Below, one piece after another: positions 6,886-24,395 of a DNA stretch of 36,337 nucleotides. The notes beneath the pieces were generated by a model. It had not been told where the DNA came from. It was given only the letters and a program-made list of their open reading frames with translations, and made no database searches. Positions within the stretch are counted from its first letter, which is position 1. Each line of letters starts with the position of its first letter. The position numbers were made by a program, and so were the translations under genes. This DNA comes from a virus (taxonomy: Duplodnaviria; Heunggongvirae; Uroviricota; Caudoviricetes), in IMG/VR virus record IMGVR_UViG_2541047902_000001. The stretch is one strand, 5' to 3'.

Positions 6886-7018
6886 TCTTTGGGACTCCTG
6901 GCTGATTAAGTATGTCGATAAGGCGTTTCCATCCGTCACGTAATTTACGGGTAATTCGTTCAAGTAAAGATTCGGAAGGGCAGCCAGCAACAGGCCACCC
7001 TGCAATGGCATATTGCAT
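6854..7018 (-). CDS. cIII: CIII (FtsH inhibitor, stabilises CII)
   Basis: 54-aa reading frame MQYAIAGWPVAGCPSESLLERITRKLRDGWKRLIDIL... matching lambda CIII. Confidence 0.9.
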   Translation of the reverse strand: MQYAIAGWPVAGCPSESLLERITRKLRDGWKRLIDILNQPGVPKNGSNTYGYPD

Positions 7019-7090
7019 GGTGTGCTCCTTATTTATACATAACGAAAAACGCCTCGAGTGAAGCGTTATTGGTATACGGTAAAGCCGCAC

Positions 7091-8055: not shown

Positions 8056-8637
8056 ATGAACAACTCATGGTGGCAGGAACTAATGCATTTTTTCCTGCAA
8101 GGAATGACACTTAAACAGTTGATTCATATGCTAATCATCCTGATCATATTGATTATTGTTATGCCGGTAAGCGTAAAAGAATGGATAAACCTGCATAATC
8201 CAGAAATCCTTCCTCATTACTGGATGTATTACATCCTGTTGTTTTGCGTTAGCTATGTGCTTAACGGCGTTGTTAATTCCGCTTATCACGCTGTGACTGA
8301 AAGAATTGAGGTATTCGTTGCTCAGAAGCGCAAATCTAAAGAAGAAAAATATGTGCAAGATTTGTTTGATTCGTTAACTCTTGGAGAAAGAGCGTATTTG
8401 GCATTCGCTGTAGCCGCTAATAACCAGCTACAAACGGAAAAGGGAGCTCATGAATCAATTTCATTGCTCAAAAAAGGACTCCTCGTTCGAAGGCCTCCTG
8501 CTGTTGGATATCCTGATACCGACCGTTTTGTTATTCCTGAAAGCTATAGACATGAGTGCTACATTCGGTTTGCCGGGAAGGCAGACAGCCTTATGGATGA
8601 ACTTATCGCTCAGGATAAGCATGGCAAAAACAAGTAA
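8056..8637 (+). CDS. sieB: Superinfection exclusion protein B
   Basis: 193-aa membrane protein in the lambda sieB position, transcribed antisense to the pL operon. Confidence 0.85.
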   Translation: MNNSWWQELMHFFLQGMTLKQLIHMLIILIILIIVMPVSVKEWINLHNPEILPHYWMYYILLFCVSYVLNGVVNSAYHAVTERIEVFVAQKRKSKEEKYVQDLFDSLTLGERAYLAFAVAANNQLQTEKGAHESISLLKKGLLVRRPPAVGYPDTDRFVIPESYRHECYIRFAGKADSLMDELIAQDKHGKNK

Positions 8638-8653
8638 TTAGCAAATGAATTTA

Positions 8654-8965
8654 TCATCTCGCCGTCAGTTGTTTTGATTTCCGGTAGCCTGCCGCGTAAA
8701 TAGCTACGTTTGGCAGGCAAACACTTCCACTGCATTCATCTACTTTCTTGCAGCGAAGGCTTCCGAGTGATATTGCTTTTTCAGAAAGGCTTAACCGCTT
8801 TCTCGGGTCTTCCTGAACAGGTTCCTCACTGTCTGTGCCGAAGATCGAATCGATGATGTTGCAGATGGAATCACGCTCGATGGCCAGCTTTCTGCGCCGC
8901 TCATGACGGCGAGTTTTGGCATTTCCTGCAAATGTTGATTTTCCGTACACGATTACCGTCATGAT
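8654..8965 (-). CDS. N: Antitermination protein N, P22 gene-24 type
   Basis: Arginine-rich motif GNAKTRRHERRRKLAIER (the P22 N boxB-binding peptide) at residues 13-30 when started at MTVIVYGK; SD GAGGA upstream. Confidence 0.85.
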   Translation of the reverse strand: MMTVIVYGKSTFAGNAKTRRHERRRKLAIERDSICNIIDSIFGTDSEEPVQEDPRKRLSLSEKAISLGSLRCKKVDECSGSVCLPNVAIYAAGYRKSKQLTAR

Positions 8966-9080
8966 GTTTTCCTCATGTGAAATGGCTTTGGTGGTGATGC
9001 GCCAGATGCTGATCTTCTGGTTGCTGTCGTTACTGCTGCAATTCACATCACCCCAAACCCATCTCGTTTGGTATCTGTTC

Positions 9081-9116
9081 GCGCTTTGTCAGCGCATCAT
9101 CGAAGTTAAAGAGCCT
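9081..9116 (-). promoter_or_regulatory. nutL: nutL: boxB hairpin GCGCUGACAAAGCGC (9081-9095) and boxA-like GGCUCUUUAAC (9106-9116)
   Basis: Exact match to the P22 boxB-left sequence on the minus strand, positioned between the expected pL and N. Confidence 0.8.
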
Positions 9117-9119
9117 GCC

Positions 9120-9375
9120 AATCTGTTCCGTTTGGCTGCCAGCGTCCTGCTGATGGCGATGATAATGAACCAATAGTTCGATATTATCAAGAACTATAAG
9201 TACGAATTGTTTGTGGTTCATTAACTTAATGAGATATGTTTTTGATATGTAAAGGAATTTATTTTTGTAAAGATTGAAGATTGGTCAGTAGGAGAGAAAG
9301 AATTGTTTGCTGGCGTGTTAGTTCGTGGGTTAGCACATGTGCGGATGTTAAATAAGGTAGACGATCGTGAGGAAA
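9120..9375 (-). promoter_or_regulatory. Predicted pL/OL region (operators not resolved)
   Basis: AT-rich intergenic region upstream of nutL and N on the minus strand; contains GTACGA motifs also present in the OR region. Confidence 0.35.
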
Positions 9376-9400
9376 AGAAAAACCGGCGCTGAGGCCGGGT
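9376..9400 (-). terminator. Intrinsic terminator ending the cI-operon transcript (tImm equivalent)
   Basis: Stem CCGGC/GCCGG with 6-nt loop and T5 run on the minus strand, 6 nt after the stop of the 299-aa gene. Confidence 0.65.
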
Positions 9401-9404
9401 ATAA

Positions 9405-10304
9405 TTATTTGATTATTTCTTTTATAAAGACTTCTTTCGGTTGGTATTTTTTATCTGATGATTTGAGCTGGTACGTTATTGTTATATCAGCACGTACAGC
9501 AAATTTACCTGCAAAATCTGATGGGTTTACGTTGGGGCCAAGAACCATATTTACTCTTCGATCTATTAATCCAGGGATAACAGCAGCCCAACCTTTCTCT
9601 GGATTGTCGAGGTCTAATGCACGGATTTCAACATCAACATCAAAATGATCCTGAGTATATGACTCTGGTGTGAAGACAACTTCAGTTGGGGCTTTTTTAA
9701 TGGTTTCAGCGGGAATGGTCACTGTACCACCCCCTGTACCTATGACCATCGTAGATCCTTCGTCTGCCCTAGCTGGGGCAAGCGTCTTAATGGAACTTTT
9801 GGCAAGAGTCTTCTTATTGGTTACCGTGCTTTCTATGATTGCTTGAAGACGGTCAGGTGAAATATTAGCCTCACCGGCACCAATATTGATGATTGTATTG
9901 TTATTTGCTTCAAAGTGGGAGGTGTTGCTTGGAGCCATAGCCTTAGTTGCTAGAACTAAGCCATATCCAACCAGACCAATAACAACAGCACCAACGAGAG
10001 CGTTTCTCATTTTCCCATTTCCGATCTTTGCATGAGCGCCAGCAAGAAACTTGTCCATTTCTTCTTGGCTACCAAAGAGGAGTTTAATAACAATATCTTC
10101 ATAAAGGCTTCCTGCTTCTAATCGCGCAACATGCACCGATATATCAAGGATATTAGCCCCTGTCAGTTCCTGCAAAACACCTTCTGATTGTTTTGCGATG
10201 GCCTCCCACCCTTGAAGGGAGGTAATCACATCTTTGATGCTTACAGGTTCTTTAGTTGAATAATATATGTTTTCGGTAAAGGTTAAAGATAATTCTTGGG
10301 ACAT
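9405..10304 (-). CDS. Unknown 299-aa single-pass membrane protein in the rexAB position (candidate exclusion / abortive-infection gene)
   Basis: ORF downstream of cI on the same strand; SD GAGGG; central hydrophobic helix (about residues 120-143, NALVGAVVIGLVGYGLVLATKAMA); low GC; followed by a terminator; no family recognised. Confidence 0.7.
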   Translation of the reverse strand: MSQELSLTFTENIYYSTKEPVSIKDVITSLQGWEAIAKQSEGVLQELTGANILDISVHVARLEAGSLYEDIVIKLLFGSQEEMDKFLAGAHAKIGNGKMRNALVGAVVIGLVGYGLVLATKAMAPSNTSHFEANNNTIINIGAGEANISPDRLQAIIESTVTNKKTLAKSSIKTLAPARADEGSTMVIGTGGGTVTIPAETIKKAPTEVVFTPESYTQDHFDVDVEIRALDLDNPEKGWAAVIPGLIDRRVNMVLGPNVNPSDFAGKFAVRADITITYQLKSSDKKYQPKEVFIKEIIK

Positions 10305-10433
10305 CCGAGCCCTCGCTGTTTCTTTCGATTTGCTGTGTTAAGCTAATATTTTAATATCCATGTTTCTGTTTGCTTGCAGTGTGTTTCTCACCACCATCCA
10401 AACGTACTGGTTACTAGCTATGTGATGATGAAG

Positions 10434-11141
10434 TCATGAACTTTTCAGCCATTCCCTGGCCTCGATGTCATCTAGGTGGCGAGATTGCTTCAGAATACCA
10501 GCTACATACTCCACCTTTGCTACTTGATGATAAGGCAACGTTATTGGCCTGTGGTCTTGGTTGATGCTTGTAAATTGGTATTCTCCGTCTCTGTCATAGC
10601 CAAGAACCTTGATCATGTTGTGCCCTTCAATGGTTCTGACAAACACCTCATCACCTGGGAATACTTTGGTGTTAGGCTCAATGAGTACATATTCTCCTGA
10701 TTTTATTCTGGGCCACATGCTGTCTCCTTTTACACGAAGACCAAAGGCATCTGGATCATCGCTATAAATCTTGAGCCACCCATCGCGCTCTTCGGTCATC
10801 TCGATGGCACCATCAACACCAAGAATTGCCTCACCAACCACGCGCACTAACCCTTTTTTTAATTTGCCAACAATTGAAAAAGTATCTTCATCATTCGCTC
10901 CATTTAACGAAGTGCCGTGCTGAAGCCAAACAACATCAACGTTTAGAAATTTCGCAAGCGCATTCATTTTTTCCTGGCGTGGTAAAGACTCAGCATTAAA
11001 CCATTTGCTAACGCCTTTGGACGAAAGAGAAAGGGCACGGGCTATGGCCATTCCCCTACCATGTTCATCAAGACCAGCTTCTTTACAGGCTTGCGCTAGC
11101 CGCTGGGCGAATTCTTTGCGCACTTTTTCATTCTGAACCAT
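10434..11141 (-). CDS. cI: CI-type prophage repressor (HTH plus LexA/S24-like self-cleaving domain), non-lambda immunity
   Basis: 235-aa ORF divergent from cro; C-terminal GDSMWP...K pattern typical of S24 peptidase-fold repressors; sequence unlike lambda CI or P22 C2. Confidence 0.8.
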   Translation of the reverse strand: MVQNEKVRKEFAQRLAQACKEAGLDEHGRGMAIARALSLSSKGVSKWFNAESLPRQEKMNALAKFLNVDVVWLQHGTSLNGANDEDTFSIVGKLKKGLVRVVGEAILGVDGAIEMTEERDGWLKIYSDDPDAFGLRVKGDSMWPRIKSGEYVLIEPNTKVFPGDEVFVRTIEGHNMIKVLGYDRDGEYQFTSINQDHRPITLPYHQVAKVEYVAGILKQSRHLDDIEAREWLKSS

Positions 11142-13722: not shown

Positions 13723-16700
13723 ATGACCACTGTGAATAAAAAGTTAAAAAAAACTGCATCTGGCGCGATTACATGGTCAGTAATTGTTACCCAGATATTA
13801 TCTCCAGTTTCTCTTTCTTTGATTCCGGCAAACAGTTTTGCATCGTCTGATAATAAAGATGTTACGCAAATTTATGCTAGCGATGAGCGTGCAAATAAAG
13901 TGGCCTCATTTGCAGTAAGTGCAGGTCAGAGTCTGGCGAATAATAATGCAAGTAGTTTTGCTGTAAATACTTTATCAACTCAGGCGACAAAAGAGGTCGT
14001 CGATTGGTTGCAACAATATGGCAATGCGCGCATCAAGCTTAATGTCGATAATTCTTTTTCCTTGAAGGATTCATCATTCGACTTTTTATATCCATGGCTG
14101 GATACTCAGGATTATGTGCTATTCAGTCAAACATCACTACATCGTACTGATGACCGTAATCAGACCAATATTGGTTTGGGGATTCGTCATTTCACTCCTG
14201 ATAATGCAATGTTGGGTGCGAATGTTTTCTACGATTATGATTTAAGTCGCAGCCACTCTCGCGCAGGTTTTGGGGTTGAGTACTGGAGAGATTATTTCAG
14301 GCTTGGTGTAAATACCTATTTTGGTTTATCTGACTGGAAGGACAGTCGGGATATTGATGATTATCTGGAAAGACCCGCAAATGGCTGGGATTTTTCTGCT
14401 GAAGGATGGCTACCTGCTTATCCGCAATTAGGGGCATCTATTCAGTTTGAAAAATATTATGGTAAAAATGTCGGATTATTTGGAAGCGATAATCTGCAGG
14501 AAAACCCTTACGCAGTTACTGGGGGAATTTCTTATACACCAGTTCCTCTGATTAAGTTTTCTGCACAGCATAAGCAAGGACAGAGCAACGTTCACGATAC
14601 AACCTTTGGTGTTGAGTTTAATTACCGCCCAGGCGTTTCCCTTGCTGAACAGCTTAGCAGTGACAATGTTGCAGTTATGCGAGAAGTCCAGAACCGGCGT
14701 TATGATTTTGTTGAACGAAATAACAACATTGTTCTGGAGTACAAGAAGAAGCATGCACTGAAAATCAGCTTACCAGAGTCTGTTCAGGGGGATGGCGAAT
14801 CAATCATCCCTGTAACACTGACAATCAACAATGCCAGTGGTGGTATCAAGTCTGTACAGTGGAATGATAGTGTATTCACTGCGGCTGGCGGTAAGATCAG
14901 TGGAAATGGCACATCATGGCAGGTCACTTTACCGGCTTATAAAAGCGAAGGTGTAAATTCGTGGAATGTTGGAGCCACGGTCCAGGATAATAGAGGCAAC
15001 GTTTCCAACTATGCGGTGATGAATATTAGCGTTATTAATAGTGGTGTCTCGACAGCGGATTCTTCTTTTATGTTGGATGGAGATTCATCTCCGACGATCT
15101 CTGCTGATGGTCAATCCACTCATCCAATAGTATTAAGCCTGAAAGACAGTAACGGTAAGGCATTAACCGGACTGGCTGATGACATTGAAATGTCAGTGGA
15201 ATTTACTGCGGATAGCAATAGTGCTCGACAGCGTGAAACGGTAACTGCCCCGTCATTAGGCGCGGTAGAGGAAATCTCTGCTGGTGTATATCGCTCTGTT
15301 CTGACTGCTGGTTCGCAGGCTGGCACAGTACGTGTAACAGCAAAAGTTCAGGGAAAAACCTTTACTTTGAATATTAAGCAGGCAGCCGTTATTGATAGTG
15401 ATGTCTCGACAGCGGATTCTTCTTTTACGTTGGATGGTGATTCGTCTCCGACGATCTCTGCTGATGGTCAATCCACTCATCCAATAGTATTAAGCCTGAA
15501 AGACAGTAACGGTAAGGCATTAACCGGACTGGCTGATGACATTGAAATGTCAGTGGAATTTACTGCGGATAGCAATAGTGCTCGACAGCGTGAAACGGTA
15601 ACTGCCCCGTCATTAGGCGCGGTAGAGGAAATCTCTGCTGGTGTATATCGCTCTGTTCTGACTGCTGGTTCGCAGGCTGGTACGGTACGTGTAACTGCAA
15701 AAGTAATGGATAAAACATTTACTCTCAGTATTAAGCAAACAGCAGCAACAGAACCTGATTCTGAGGTCAGTGCTGTTTTAACCGCTGCACCAGCAGAACA
15801 GGTAGTTGGTTACAATATCAATCTACAACTGGCAGTGAAGGATTCACAAGGAAATGCAATCACTGGTGATAACACTCTGAGCTTTTATGCTCTTAACCAG
15901 GCAGAAGGAGTCGAGTTTGGGGCTGTAACGGAAAAAGACGGTGTCTATAGCGCGACAGTAACTTCAAAACGAGCTGGTAAGATTCGGATCGGTGTTAAAT
16001 CGGGTAGTCACAATTTCTCAGGTATTGAGAAAGAAATCTCCTTTATTGAAGATCGAACACAGTTCGCATTCTCTCGTATTGAAGCCAGTAAAAATAATGC
16101 ATTGGCTGACGGCAAACAACAGAATACGGTGACTTTAAGCCTTGCAGATCGTTTCGGCAATGTTGTGCCCGGTTATGCTGTTACGCTGTCCTTACCTGCG
16201 GGGGTAACTCAAGTTGGTGGTGAACATGCTGTGTCAACTGACGAAAACGGTAATGCTGTTTTTGCGTTAATAAGCTCCACTCCGGGTTCTTACGTGATTA
16301 AAGCTCATGCTGGTTCTCAGATGTCTACTGAGTTAACAGTAACCTTTGCATCAAATATGATCGGAGCTTCACTGTCACTGACGCCTGGAAACAGTAGCTT
16401 AATTTCCAATATTCCTGCTAATGGTAAGGATGCTGCGGTATTGAATGTGCAACTGACAAATACGAATGCGTCGGTCAATGGACAGAAGATTCAGCTCATC
16501 ACCTCATCTGAAAGATTGTCTGTACCGACAAATATCGTGACTGATTCAACAGGGCATGTTTCCGTACCACTTACAACGGTGAGAGCTGGTGAGTATACGG
16601 TGGCTGCACGAGTGACTGACGGTTCCCATAGTGTGGAGTCTGGCAGCGTTAAGTTAACTTTTGTACCAGATGCTGCTTCCGCAGAACTTACTATGAGTAC

Positions 16701-17631
16701 ATCAAAACAGCAGATTGTGGCCGATGGTAGTGAAAGTGCAACAGTGGACATTCAGTTGGTTGATGCCAATAACAATGCGTTTACAGGCGATGTGGATTTA
16801 ACGGTTACACCATCGACGGGAGCATCATTGACCAGTAGTAAACTGCAGTTGGATGCTCATGGACAGGCAACAACGCAGTTCACAGCATCGAAATCAGGCC
16901 AGTACACAATTCAGGCTGAGTATGTTCTAGATGGGAAACGTATAACCGCAAGCAAAAATATTGATGCCGTGACGGATGTGAAGGAGGCTGTGTTGGAGAT
17001 CACATCATCTGCATCTTCGGCTGTAGTGAGCGATACCAACAATCTGATATTTACGTTACTGTTGAAAAGTACGTCAGGCGAAGTATTAAGTGGTCGAGTA
17101 TTGAATATCAAGGCATCTGGGCCGTCCAAATATGGTGCGTTGGTGGTTGATAAAACCACTGTAACGACTGATGAGTATGGTCTGGCTACGGTAAGCGTAC
17201 ATGGTCGAACGGCTGGTTCGTATAAATTAACGGCGACCTTAGATGAACTTGGCAGTGATGTTAGTGAGGTGAAGTCATTCTCTCTGTATGCTGATGAGGC
17301 AAATGGAGTATTGACACTGCATAAAGATGGAGGCTATGACACAGATGATGGTACTCCAGTGGGGGTTTATGCCCGATTTGTTGACCATTTCGGCAATCCG
17401 TTATCTGGTACGGTTGAGTTTTCTGCTGGTAGTGAAGATAGTCCAAACTCTCAACGGGTTAAAATGGAGCCTGCTACAGTAACGTTACACTGGACAGGTA
17501 ATGCAGCCTCGGAGTTCAGCACCTATGAAAGCGGTTATCACTGGATTAAGGCCAAAATAACGAACAGCAAAAATACATATGAGAAAACAATAAGGACTTA
17601 TGTTGTAAAGCTCCCTGAAAAGGATAGTTAA
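13723..17631 (+). CDS. Invasin/intimin-family inverse autotransporter adhesin with bacterial Ig-like repeats (cargo in the ren slot)
   Basis: 1302-aa ORF; signal-like N-terminus; beta-barrel motifs typical of invasin/intimin beta-domains; long run of Ig-like repeats; AT-rich upstream region; own terminator. Confidence 0.8.
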   Translation: MTTVNKKLKKTASGAITWSVIVTQILSPVSLSLIPANSFASSDNKDVTQIYASDERANKVASFAVSAGQSLANNNASSFAVNTLSTQATKEVVDWLQQYGNARIKLNVDNSFSLKDSSFDFLYPWLDTQDYVLFSQTSLHRTDDRNQTNIGLGIRHFTPDNAMLGANVFYDYDLSRSHSRAGFGVEYWRDYFRLGVNTYFGLSDWKDSRDIDDYLERPANGWDFSAEGWLPAYPQLGASIQFEKYYGKNVGLFGSDNLQENPYAVTGGISYTPVPLIKFSAQHKQGQSNVHDTTFGVEFNYRPGVSLAEQLSSDNVAVMREVQNRRYDFVERNNNIVLEYKKKHALKISLPESVQGDGESIIPVTLTINNASGGIKSVQWNDSVFTAAGGKISGNGTSWQVTLPAYKSEGVNSWNVGATVQDNRGNVSNYAVMNISVINSGVSTADSSFMLDGDSSPTISADGQSTHPIVLSLKDSNGKALTGLADDIEMSVEFTADSNSARQRETVTAPSLGAVEEISAGVYRSVLTAGSQAGTVRVTAKVQGKTFTLNIKQAAVIDSDVSTADSSFTLDGDSSPTISADGQSTHPIVLSLKDSNGKALTGLADDIEMSVEFTADSNSARQRETVTAPSLGAVEEISAGVYRSVLTAGSQAGTVRVTAKVMDKTFTLSIKQTAATEPDSEVSAVLTAAPAEQVVGYNINLQLAVKDSQGNAITGDNTLSFYALNQAEGVEFGAVTEKDGVYSATVTSKRAGKIRIGVKSGSHNFSGIEKEISFIEDRTQFAFSRIEASKNNALADGKQQNTVTLSLADRFGNVVPGYAVTLSLPAGVTQVGGEHAVSTDENGNAVFALISSTPGSYVIKAHAGSQMSTELTVTFASNMIGASLSLTPGNSSLISNIPANGKDAAVLNVQLTNTNASVNGQKIQLITSSERLSVPTNIVTDSTGHVSVPLTTVRAGEYTVAARVTDGSHSVESGSVKLTFVPDAASAELTMSTSKQQIVADGSESATVDIQLVDANNNAFTGDVDLTVTPSTGASLTSSKLQLDAHGQATTQFTASKSGQYTIQAEYVLDGKRITASKNIDAVTDVKEAVLEITSSASSAVVSDTNNLIFTLLLKSTSGEVLSGRVLNIKASGPSKYGALVVDKTTVTTDEYGLATVSVHGRTAGSYKLTATLDELGSDVSEVKSFSLYADEANGVLTLHKDGGYDTDDGTPVGVYARFVDHFGNPLSGTVEFSAGSEDSPNSQRVKMEPATVTLHWTGNAASEFSTYESGYHWIKAKITNSKNTYEKTIRTYVVKLPEKDS
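15040..15753. repeat. Tandem duplication (2 x 357 bp) encoding two nearly identical 119-aa Ig-like domains inside the adhesin gene
   Basis: About 300 bp repeated almost perfectly with a 357-bp period (15046 vs 15403). Confidence 0.9.
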
Positions 17632-19953: not shown

Positions 19954-20478
19954 TTATTGTTTAACCCATAATAATTCATTGACATTGAATCCCAACTTTT
20001 GAGCGGTTCGCACATAGTCTGCTTTTACTTTATCTGGAATAGTTGGGGTCCTTGCCAGAATCCATAGGTATTCTCTGTTCGGACCACTGACAAGAGCATA
20101 CTTATACTCATCATCCAGTTTGATTACATTATAGCCACCATAGAAGGGGCCAAAAAACGAAACCTTCAACGCTGCAGTTTTAGTATCTCCAGTAAAGTAT
20201 GCTTTACCTTCGCTCTCGCTCCATTTATTTTTCGTTGGATCGTATCCACGGTTAAGTACACGAATCCCTCCGTCGTTCCGTTTTCCATAAGTAGCGCTGA
20301 CCTGTTCCAGACCACGTTCGAACCGGTTCTCGAGGCGAGCTATTTCATACCACTTTCCGAGGTAGCGGTTGGCGTCAAAATTTGTAATCGGCTGCACACC
20401 TTTAGGTGGTGTCGGGGCCTTACATGCTATAAGAGTGAAAGAGAGTGCAATGCCAGTCAACACAGGCCATAACTTCAT
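19954..20478 (-). CDS. Bacterial lipocalin (Blc-like outer-membrane lipoprotein)
   Basis: 174-aa ORF with lipobox LIAC and conserved lipocalin motifs (NFDANRYLGKWYEIARLENRFERG..., FFGPFYGGYNVI); opposite orientation to the late operon. Confidence 0.8.
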   Translation of the reverse strand: MKLWPVLTGIALSFTLIACKAPTPPKGVQPITNFDANRYLGKWYEIARLENRFERGLEQVSATYGKRNDGGIRVLNRGYDPTKNKWSESEGKAYFTGDTKTAALKVSFFGPFYGGYNVIKLDDEYKYALVSGPNREYLWILARTPTIPDKVKADYVRTAQKLGFNVNELLWVKQ

Positions 20479-20670: not shown

Positions 20671-21630
20671 ATGATAAAAAAACCTGTGATTGGAATCAGC
20701 GGTTGTCTGGCCGGTTCTGCTGTTCGTTTTGATGGTGGTCACAAAAGAGCTGACTTTTTAATGGACAAATTAGTGGAATGGGTAACATTCAGACCAGTAT
20801 GTCCGGAAATGGCTATAGGGCTGCCAGTTCCGCGTCCTGCTCTACGTCTTGTGCGCTCGACGCAAGGAAATATACGGATGTGTTTCAGCCACGACCAGAA
20901 TGAGGATGTGACAGAGAGAATGACAGAGTTTAGTCGTTCTTATATGGACAAATTAAAGGATGTATCGGGGTTTGTGGTTTGTGCTAAATCTCCCAGCTGT
21001 GGCATGGAGCGCGTGCGTGTCTATGATGAAAATGGTAATCGAGGTCGTAAAGATGGAGTGGGACTATTTACGAGCACTTTGATGGAAAAGTTTTCCTGGC
21101 TACCGGTTGAAGAGGATGGGCGATTACATGATCCAGTGCTTCGTGAGAATTTTGTTGAAAGAGTTTTTGCTTTGCATGAGCTCAATCACCTTTACAAGGA
21201 GAAATTATCAAGAAGAGAGTTATTAGCTTTTCATAGTCGTTATAAGCTTCAGTTGTTGGCGCATAGTCAGGCAGGCTATAAAGATATGGGACCATTTGTG
21301 GCTGCAATACACGAGTGGGCGGACCTTGAATCATACTTTGAGGTGTATCGTGATAAGCTGATGGCGATTCTCAGAAAACCTGCATCACGTAAAAATCACA
21401 CGAATGTGATGATGCATATACAGGGGTATTTTAGTAACTACTTAAGTACACGCCAGCGTAAAGAGTTGAGCGAGGTTATACTTAACTATCGTTCTGGCAC
21501 ATTACCTCTTCTTGCGCCGTTGACTCTGCTGAAGCATTATCTGGGTGAGTATCCTAATGATTACTTGCTTACACAGAATTACTTCGATCCCTATCCGGAC
21601 GAACTGGCTCTAAGACTGATGGTAAATTAA
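20671..21630 (+). CDS. DUF523/DUF1722-family protein (YbgA/TudS-like, Cys-rich)
   Basis: 319-aa ORF; N-terminal Cys positions GISGCLAG, RPVCPEM, CAKSPSCGMERV resemble the DUF523 fold; C-terminal extension. Confidence 0.55.
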   Translation: MIKKPVIGISGCLAGSAVRFDGGHKRADFLMDKLVEWVTFRPVCPEMAIGLPVPRPALRLVRSTQGNIRMCFSHDQNEDVTERMTEFSRSYMDKLKDVSGFVVCAKSPSCGMERVRVYDENGNRGRKDGVGLFTSTLMEKFSWLPVEEDGRLHDPVLRENFVERVFALHELNHLYKEKLSRRELLAFHSRYKLQLLAHSQAGYKDMGPFVAAIHEWADLESYFEVYRDKLMAILRKPASRKNHTNVMMHIQGYFSNYLSTRQRKELSEVILNYRSGTLPLLAPLTLLKHYLGEYPNDYLLTQNYFDPYPDELALRLMVN

Positions 21631-24101: not shown

Positions 24102-24395
24102 TTATTGTGAGCAATAGACACGCGCTTCCAGCGGAGTATAAATGCCTAAAGTAATAAAACCGAGCAATCCATTTACGAATGTTTGCTGGGTTTCTGTTTT
24201 AACAACATTTTCTGCGCCGCCACAAATTTTGGCTGCATCAACAGTTTTCTCCTGTCCAATTCCCGAAACGAAGAAATGATGGGTGATGGTTTCCTTTGGT
24301 GTTACTGCTGTCGGTTTGTTTCCAACAGTAAACGTCTGTTGAGCACATCCTGTAATAAGCATTGCCAGAGCGGCAGAAAACAACATTTTTTTCAT
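24102..24395 (-). CDS. bor: Bor lipoprotein (serum-resistance)
   Basis: 97-aa frame from MKKMLFSAALAMLITGC... matching lambda Bor. Confidence 0.9.
   Translation of the reverse strand: MKKMLFSAALAMLITGCAQQTFTVGNKPTAVTPKETITHHFFVSGIGQEKTVDAAKICGGAENVVKTETQQTFVNGLLGFITLGIYTPLEARVYCSQ

Follow-up and report, generated by a model that had tools for sequence, protein, structure and literature searches.

Genes placed in the repressor operon of a prophage are expected, by their position, to be expressed in every lysogen, and the cases that have been studied, rexAB and bstA, are phage-exclusion systems. In phage lambda the slot between cI and pL carries the exclusion genes rexA and rexB (PMC11077077). 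BstA, a prophage abortive-infection protein reported to act where phage DNA is being replicated, is encoded downstream of the repressor locus (PMC8585504). Here we describe a gene found in the rexAB slot of a lambda-like E. coli prophage, the IMG/VR record IMGVR_UViG_2541047902_000001. The whole stretch of 36,337 nucleotides (nt), numbered from its first letter, is referred to below as the window. The gene encodes a protein of 299 amino acids (aa) and belongs to a large family that has no recognisable domain or fold and appears in no defence database.

Exclusion at the inner membrane can be the work of one protein. P22 SieA is a lone inner-membrane protein that is enough to block DNA injection; it has 162-164 aa, three predicted transmembrane segments and the motif FxRYPxEAxxFNK, is encoded between genes 16 and 9 of P22-like phages, and is found in Enterobacteriaceae only (PMC10883804). 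HK97 gp15 is likewise a lone inner-membrane protein sufficient to block DNA injection (Cumby et al. 2012, cited in PMC13492144). SNIPE (PD-lambda-4), which combines DUF4041 with a nuclease domain, is a membrane-bound nuclease that cleaves DNA as it is being injected (PMC13190303).

We propose that the 299-aa gene is a repressor-operon accessory or exclusion gene from an undescribed protein family, and by analogy with these systems an exclusion role is plausible. A first-pass annotation, made from the letters of the window, had put the gene forward as a candidate determinant of superinfection exclusion or abortive infection. The repeated linkage to repressor operons reported here is much stronger positional evidence than that annotation had. 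Should the gene serve defence, it would add a compact membrane mechanism encoded by a single gene and would affect which hosts therapeutic and temperate coliphages can infect. Otherwise, it represents an unstudied, conserved membrane function linked to lysogeny.

The 299-aa gene beside the repressor

The gene is an open reading frame (ORF) with an ATG start at 9405..10304 on the minus strand; RefSeq lists the product as WP_000076839.1, 'hypothetical protein', and it falls into PHROG 4506. A Shine-Dalgarno sequence, GAGGG, can be read 5 nt ahead of the ATG (10314..10310, minus strand). An intrinsic terminator (9373..9398, minus strand) begins 6 nt past the stop codon. It consists of a stem of five G+C base pairs and a 6-nt loop, CCGGC-CUCAGC-GCCGG at 9398..9383, followed by UUUUUCUUUU with its U-run. 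The hairpin is modest: its folding free energy is -9.1 kcal/mol, with z = -0.9 relative to shuffled sequences.

Directly upstream, on the same strand, is a cI-type repressor with HTH_3 and Peptidase_S24 domains (10434..11141, minus strand). The two genes are separated by a 129-bp spacer (10305..10433, minus strand); the corresponding gap in lambda is 112 bp. A scan of this spacer detected neither a terminator-like hairpin nor a sigma-70-like promoter, and read-through from the cI transcript is therefore expected. The simplest reading of these signals is that the 299-aa gene is cotranscribed with cI on a transcript that ends at its own terminator, and it is very probably expressed in lysogens. 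The terminator would close the transcription unit of cI and the 299-aa gene, as the counterpart of lambda tImm. The left boundary of the slot is a candidate pL, TTGATA-17-CATTAT at 9190..9162 (feature 9162..9210, minus strand). It overlaps operator-like repeats that are also present in the cI-cro intergenic region.

These results bear out most of what had been read from the letters: a 299-aa gene at 9405-10304 with its own Shine-Dalgarno sequence, a terminator 6 nt after its stop codon, a position in the rexAB slot and the orientation of cI. The lambda record shows rexA and rexB in a matching layout, cI-rexA-rexB-oL, and the upstream repressor on the same strand is placed for cotranscription. 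The gene had also been called low in G+C. At 41.3% it does lie below the window (48.3%) and cI (45.3%), but this is not unusual for the immunity region, where sieB has 40.5%.

The likeness to lambda RexA/RexB thus extends to the slot, the orientation, the geometry of the transcription unit (a spacer after cI, a terminator before oL/pL), the presence of a membrane component and the expected expression in lysogens. It does not extend to the genes themselves. One gene followed by a terminator replaces the two-gene operon of sensor and effector, and a protein with one helix and two large soluble domains replaces the soluble RexA and the small multi-span RexB. Profile comparison gave an hhalign probability of 0.1% with RexA and 0.6% with RexB, in the latter case with only the hydrophobic stretch aligning. 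The window's own SieB (8056-8637) gave 0.2%.

Could the ORF be a chance frame or a decaying remnant rather than a gene? Its RefSeq label of 'hypothetical' and a premature stop in one strain would fit. In E. coli O127:H6 E2348/69 (NC_011601.1 729618-730517; locus L028, 4001-4900), a G-to-T change turns codon 19 from GAA (Glu) into a stop codon, and RefSeq annotates this copy, as a result, as a shortened 256-aa product. Everything else speaks against it. The ratio of nonsynonymous to synonymous substitution rates (dN/dS) is 0.09 relative to the Edwardsiella hoshinae orthologue and 0.05 relative to that of Kluyvera ascorbata, and with these orthologues none of the three thirds of the protein, N-terminal, central or C-terminal, reaches 0.13. 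Full-length homologues keep a constant length down to 24-32% identity, and the predicted fold is confident. Of 5,426 complete E. coli genomes, 150 (about 3%), clinical isolates among them, carry the gene at 99% identity or more. Copies with 99.7% identity occur in eleven sequenced coliphages (1H12 and the Lambda_ev series), and the exact protein is found on at least 1,000 assembled contigs, 'hypothetical' in every record. The dN/dS values of 0.05-0.09, together with homologues that form 55 clusters at 90% identity and 659 at 50%, rule out a chance ORF. We conclude that the gene is real and subject to strong purifying selection; the probability that it is no gene at all is negligible.

The gene also moves as a unit. 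The window shares DNA similarity with prophages of Edwardsiella (95%), Kluyvera (90%), Leclercia (77%) and Citrobacter (65%). In all four the downstream edge of similarity falls at 9371-9378. The upstream edge lies at 10313-10366 in Edwardsiella, Kluyvera and Leclercia and at 10280, inside the ORF, in Citrobacter. The similar span comprises the ribosome-binding site, the ORF and the terminator; of the spacer, the part from about 10305 to 10366 moves along, and the flanking repressor and the DNA on the pL side are unmatched. These edges define a mobile single-gene cassette of which the terminator is the downstream edge, and the unit marked in the first-pass annotation (9376-10433) is almost exactly the unit that moves. 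The cassette belongs with the phage accessory genes called morons, having separate boundaries, a terminator and at least five types of slot; a promoter belonging to the cassette was not detected. Within E. coli, the cassette always accompanies the present immunity type. The E2348/69 prophage differs outside the N-cI-cro-cII block: it has Rad52/Ssb recombination genes, a different replication module and no SieB.

An undescribed family of predicted membrane proteins

How widespread is this gene? A profile search of 1.84 billion cluster representatives returned the 659 clusters mentioned above (50% identity level) at E <= 1e-3, with 280 of them at E <= 1e-30. Nearly all members have 290-330 aa and align end to end. 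Repeating the search with a profile of 142 sequences added no depth. The family is carried by temperate phages of Proteobacteria and by a single cyanophage. The hosts include Enterobacterales, Pseudomonas, Desulfuromonadales and many beta-proteobacteria (Nitrosomonas, Zoogloea, Cupriavidus, Accumulibacter). The members from Pasteurella and Kingella are plasmid records, and the Mu-like cyanophage Lsp-JY19 carries a member that matches with an hhalign probability of 100% at 32% identity.

To what genes is the family linked? We sampled 25 genomic and 41 viral neighbourhoods, which reduce to about 47 non-redundant loci overall; the viral set taken alone reduces to 27. A co-oriented repressor of the CI type (Peptidase_S24 and helix-turn-helix) lies directly upstream in 16 of the 27 viral loci and, by clustering, in 25 of the roughly 47. 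The adjoining repressors share just 8-43% identity with one another. Apart from them, only divergent cro-like, cII and replication genes recur among the neighbours. No gene recurs downstream, and the roughly 47 loci hold no conserved partner outside the repressor module.

The family is not confined to this position. Members are also found between the Q antiterminator and holin genes, in a Mu-like head module before the protease gene, between tail chaperone and tape-measure genes (locus L007), just before the lysozyme gene of the cyanophage, and in a satellite-like element with AlpA, DUF3987 and MobA. Because it also occurs in these other accessory slots, the gene is a general mobile accessory gene and is not specific to the rex slot. 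Some members stand right before late or lysis genes (L029 7001-7900, L033 7001-7933 and L078 3281-4279; Mu-like protease, Q-holin and lysozyme). For such copies, expression may come not in lysogens but late in the lytic cycle.

In Pseudomonas phage vB_Pae_U9, whose member has 24% identity, and in a metagenomic phage, the repressor is followed by three or four genes, with the family member in last place. The string of cargo genes between repressor and family member spans L027 3154-5915 in vB_Pae_U9 and L082 3019-5882 in the metagenomic phage, an arrangement that points to an accessory island of several genes behind the repressor. One cargo gene of a repressor operon encodes a staphylococcal-nuclease-like protein, a weak PADLOC candidate match. 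The two genes that precede the family member in vB_Pae_U9 have no recognisable family.

The statement that the protein belongs to no assignable family has stood up well. It matches PHROG 4506 from residue 1 to 299 against positions 1-300 of a 300-position profile (E = 1.9e-170). PHROG 4506 is annotated 'unknown function', so that membership explains nothing. No significant match was found in Pfam (none at E <= 1) or NCBIfam, and sequence and profile searches of PDB found nothing. Weak matches below the cut-off to DUF1206, Bromo_TP_like and DUF3082 were rejected. A relative with 60% identity from Kluyvera intermedia (UniRef100_A0ABX3UIR1) bears the UniRef name 'Baseplate protein J-like', which Pfam does not reproduce. 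Tab (PMC10884400) is an unrelated protein.

Comparison of folds was equally unproductive. Foldseek yielded no significant match in PDB or BFVD. M16/insulinase-like folds recurred among the hits with TM-scores of at most 0.2, alike only in the order of secondary-structure elements, and were set aside. One viral protein annotated as containing DUF6575 matched, perhaps outside its DUF6575 part, with E = 2e-4 and a TM-score of 0.43. DUF6575 is present in one E. coli defence system of Vassallo et al. 2022 (PMC9519451). The Pfam model for DUF6575 matched neither the 299-aa protein nor 37 relatives at E <= 0.1, and the PADLOC models likewise gave nothing.

The protein has only one strongly hydrophobic segment, aa 102-120 (Kyte-Doolittle mean 2.24), and we found no N-terminal signal sequence. 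All 186 homologues examined have a hydrophobic segment near residue 105, and a second candidate never reaches transmembrane hydrophobicity. The earlier proposal of a membrane-anchored protein with a single hydrophobic helix is upheld by this conservation. The soluble domains that flank the helix had been put at 115 and 155 aa; this estimate needs correction to about 100 aa on the N-terminal side and about 175 aa on the C-terminal side.

A confident AlphaFold2 model (mean pLDDT 83, pTM 0.68) gives the protein the following parts. An N-terminal beta-alpha-beta-beta-alpha unit (aa 6-94) precedes a long helix (aa 101-145), broken only at P125; three short helices and a beta-rich C-terminal part (aa 186-297) follow. 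The N-terminal alpha/beta domain (aa 1-97; 10014..10304, minus strand) carries conserved L30, G65-S66-L67, E69 and F77 and is predicted to be cytoplasmic. The single transmembrane helix (aa ~101-123; 9936..10004, minus strand) is rich in glycine and has a K+R-rich N-terminal flank. Shortly after it stands the juxtamembrane motif ANNNTIINIGAGE (aa 133-145; 9870..9908, minus strand). In an alignment of 37 sequences this motif, ANNNxIINxGAG, has eight invariant and four nearly invariant positions; it is weaker in the wider family. The beta-rich C-terminal domain (aa 183-299; 9408..9758, minus strand), predicted to be periplasmic, has near-invariant P206, R228-A229-x-D231-x-D233, G238-W239 and R250. 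P177-A178 is also conserved in the C-terminal part.

Which side of the membrane does each domain face? Among the 186 homologues, the 15 residues before the helix contain on average 3.2 K+R and the 15 after it 1.1, and the N-terminal flank is the richer in 86% of the sequences. By the positive-inside rule, this bias places the N-terminal domain in the cytoplasm and the C-terminal part in the periplasm. A single-pass inner-membrane protein with its N-terminus in and its C-terminus out is thus the probable topology. Mean-field co-variation was applied to the same 186 homologues (effective number of sequences, Neff, 161) to look for contact between the N- and C-terminal domains. It returned gap artefacts and then noise, failed to recover the predicted hairpins, and was discarded.

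These features set the protein beside, and apart from, the described single-gene systems. P22 SieA is also a lone prophage-expressed inner-membrane protein in an accessory slot, with strongly divergent sequence types. Judged by its published description, SieA differs from the present family, which has 299 aa and one helix, lies mostly after the repressor, and extends across Proteobacteria and a cyanophage; the SieA motif is absent from the translated 299-aa sequence. HK97 gp15 resembles it as a cassette with its own terminator, and the L007 member stands at the place of gp15, between tail chaperone and tape-measure genes. However, gp15 has 62 aa, and the hhalign probability is 0.1%. BstA is likewise the product of a single gene for about 300 aa, in a matching position relative to the repressor, in diverse Gram-negative prophages. 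BstA has an N-terminal domain of the KilA-N type, whereas the 299-aa protein has neither KilA-N nor another Pfam domain (E <= 1) and does have a membrane helix. SNIPE offers a possible functional analogy as a membrane-anchored single-protein defence whose cytoplasmic working domain acts at the site of injection. The two proteins are unrelated, and the 299-aa protein contains no nuclease motif and has no Pfam or PADLOC match.

Candidate functions

We tentatively favour the view that the 299-aa protein is a lysogen-expressed inner-membrane protein of exclusion or defence, a function suggested by position. According to this view, a self-contained cassette would have inserted into the repressor operon, and its product would be made in lysogens on the cI transcript (pRM/pRE). 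The product would be a single-pass inner-membrane protein that turns an alpha/beta N-terminal domain of about 100 aa towards the cytoplasm. Beyond the Gly-rich helix, a conserved Asn-rich juxtamembrane helix would lead to a helical and beta-rich periplasmic part of about 150 aa. Alone at the cytoplasmic membrane, the protein would protect the lysogen from other phages. The likeliest mode would be superinfection exclusion, in which genome delivery across the inner membrane is hindered by a protein unrelated to P22 SieA and HK97 gp15. We favour defence because the slot genes rexAB and bstA exclude phages and because SieA and HK97 gp15 block injection alone. The case for an anti-phage function of any kind is, in our judgement, evenly balanced. 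An entry block specifically is more doubtful, yet somewhat likelier than abortive infection because the large conserved domain is predicted to be periplasmic.

Several observations weigh against a role in exclusion or defence. PADLOC-DB v2, which includes the PD-T4, PD-T7 and PD-lambda systems, returned no family at E <= 1, and the protein is absent from the DefensePredictor supplements. It is mentioned in no paper found, in a search that did not extend to the prophage defence screen of Brenes & Laub 2025. The cargo genes that share its operon are mostly unknown and are not recognised defence genes; a scan for defence families gave one weak nuclease hit. Low dN/dS with no diversifying signal is atypical of proteins that bind fast-evolving parts of phages. 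The cytoplasmic domain is conserved equally with the rest and is not obviously needed by a pure entry blocker. The nonsense codon of E2348/69 shows that the gene can be lost. Finally, aa 146-182 are again rich in K and R, so that a hairpin or an arrangement with both domains on the same side is possible.

If the protein does act against phages, it might do so after entry, as an abortive-infection effector. The cytoplasmic N-terminal domain would sense a phage product, and the Gly-rich transmembrane helix and the Asn-rich juxtamembrane helix would oligomerise into a pore or depolarise the membrane in another way, so that the cell dies or arrests before phage release. The protein would then be a one-protein counterpart of RexA, the sensor, and RexB, the membrane effector. 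The shared rexAB slot fits this proposal, as does a cytoplasmic domain conserved as well as the rest of the protein, and it needs no partner gene. A helix of small residues (G105, G110, G113 and G115, the last shared by 83% of family members) and the polar, largely invariant ANNNxIINxGAG beside it would both suit helix-helix packing. But a lone transmembrane helix offers only a minimal basis for a pore, the large conserved domain on the far side is left without a role, and there is no similarity to RexB or to PADLOC effectors. We consider abortive infection unlikely. To an equal degree we doubt that the gene encodes an envelope protein of lysogenic conversion, one that alters host physiology or interactions and has no part in phage defence. 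This prophage is indeed loaded with envelope accessory genes (Iss/Bor lipoprotein, lipocalin, inverse autotransporter). Conversion is also consistent with strong purifying selection that lacks an arms-race signature and with the absence of a match in defence databases, and expression in lysogens would suit any gene of benefit to the host. However, the hosts span enterics, pseudomonads, nitrifiers, Desulfuromonadales and a cyanobacterium, among which a shared niche-specific role is unlikely, and the recurrent choice of the repressor operon resembles that of known exclusion genes.

Might the protein instead serve the phage's own decisions? As a membrane-tethered modulator of lysogeny and induction or of lysis timing, it could for example relay signals from the envelope or periplasm to the cytoplasm. 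RexA and RexB influence the lambda switch (PMC11077077). The linkage of the present family to repressors is tight, and elsewhere the gene stands just before lysis genes, in the Q-holin interval or upstream of lysozyme. The predicted arrangement of a cytoplasmic domain, one transmembrane helix and a periplasmic domain is also that of transmembrane signal transducers such as anti-sigma factors. Against a switch role, the cassette swaps freely among unrelated repressors, which argues that it has no specific partner in the switch; other copies are found in head modules, tail modules and a non-phage mobile element; and a null allele is tolerated in E2348/69. Of the functional alternatives this one seems to us the least probable. 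A bolder version of the exclusion proposal, which we also regard as improbable, is that the family constitutes a new class of membrane device in repressor operons, coupling periplasmic events through one helix to a conserved cytoplasmic domain. Such a device would sense superinfection, in the form of a foreign injection apparatus or envelope damage, and would respond with exclusion, abortive infection or prophage induction. Its fold and mechanism would be ones not yet seen in any defence system.

Other features of the prophage

The matching RefSeq prophage, in E. coli CUVET16-394, adjoins ybhC. To the left of the 299-aa gene the window carries ral, sieB (8056-8637, plus strand) and N (RefSeq coding sequence ~8654-8962, minus strand), followed by about 420 bp of non-coding DNA. 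To the right, beyond the spacer and the cI-type repressor, RefSeq annotates cro, cII, a replication protein and replication protein P. A doubtful RefSeq ORF of 71 aa lies on the plus strand at about 8961-9176. Between the candidate oL/pL and the terminator of the 299-aa gene, some 190 bp of AT-rich non-coding DNA (9191-9382) lie outside the mobile cassette and bear no annotated feature. The sole Rfam family in the window is the lambda cIII thermoregulator RNA (RF01804, 88.5 bits) at 6973-7031 on the minus strand. The small RNA svsR (PMC12803456) is located within cI and is not relevant to the 299-aa gene.

As in lambda, sieB runs opposite to the pL operon beside N. N may thus be flanked in this prophage by two genes of the exclusion type, sieB and the 299-aa gene.

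Cargo related to the envelope is unusually abundant in this prophage. Replication gene P is separated from the nin region by an inserted gene for an inverse autotransporter of 1302 aa (13723-17631, plus strand), intimin/invasin-like according to RefSeq. One of its domains is duplicated, as a 357-bp unit that occurs twice at 95% identity (repeat 15030-15737). Around the lysis cassette there are accessory genes between Q and holin, for a lipocalin-family protein (19954-20478, minus strand) and a YbgA-family protein (20671-21630, plus strand). A gene for an Iss/Bor serum-survival lipoprotein follows the Rz gene (24102-24395, minus strand).

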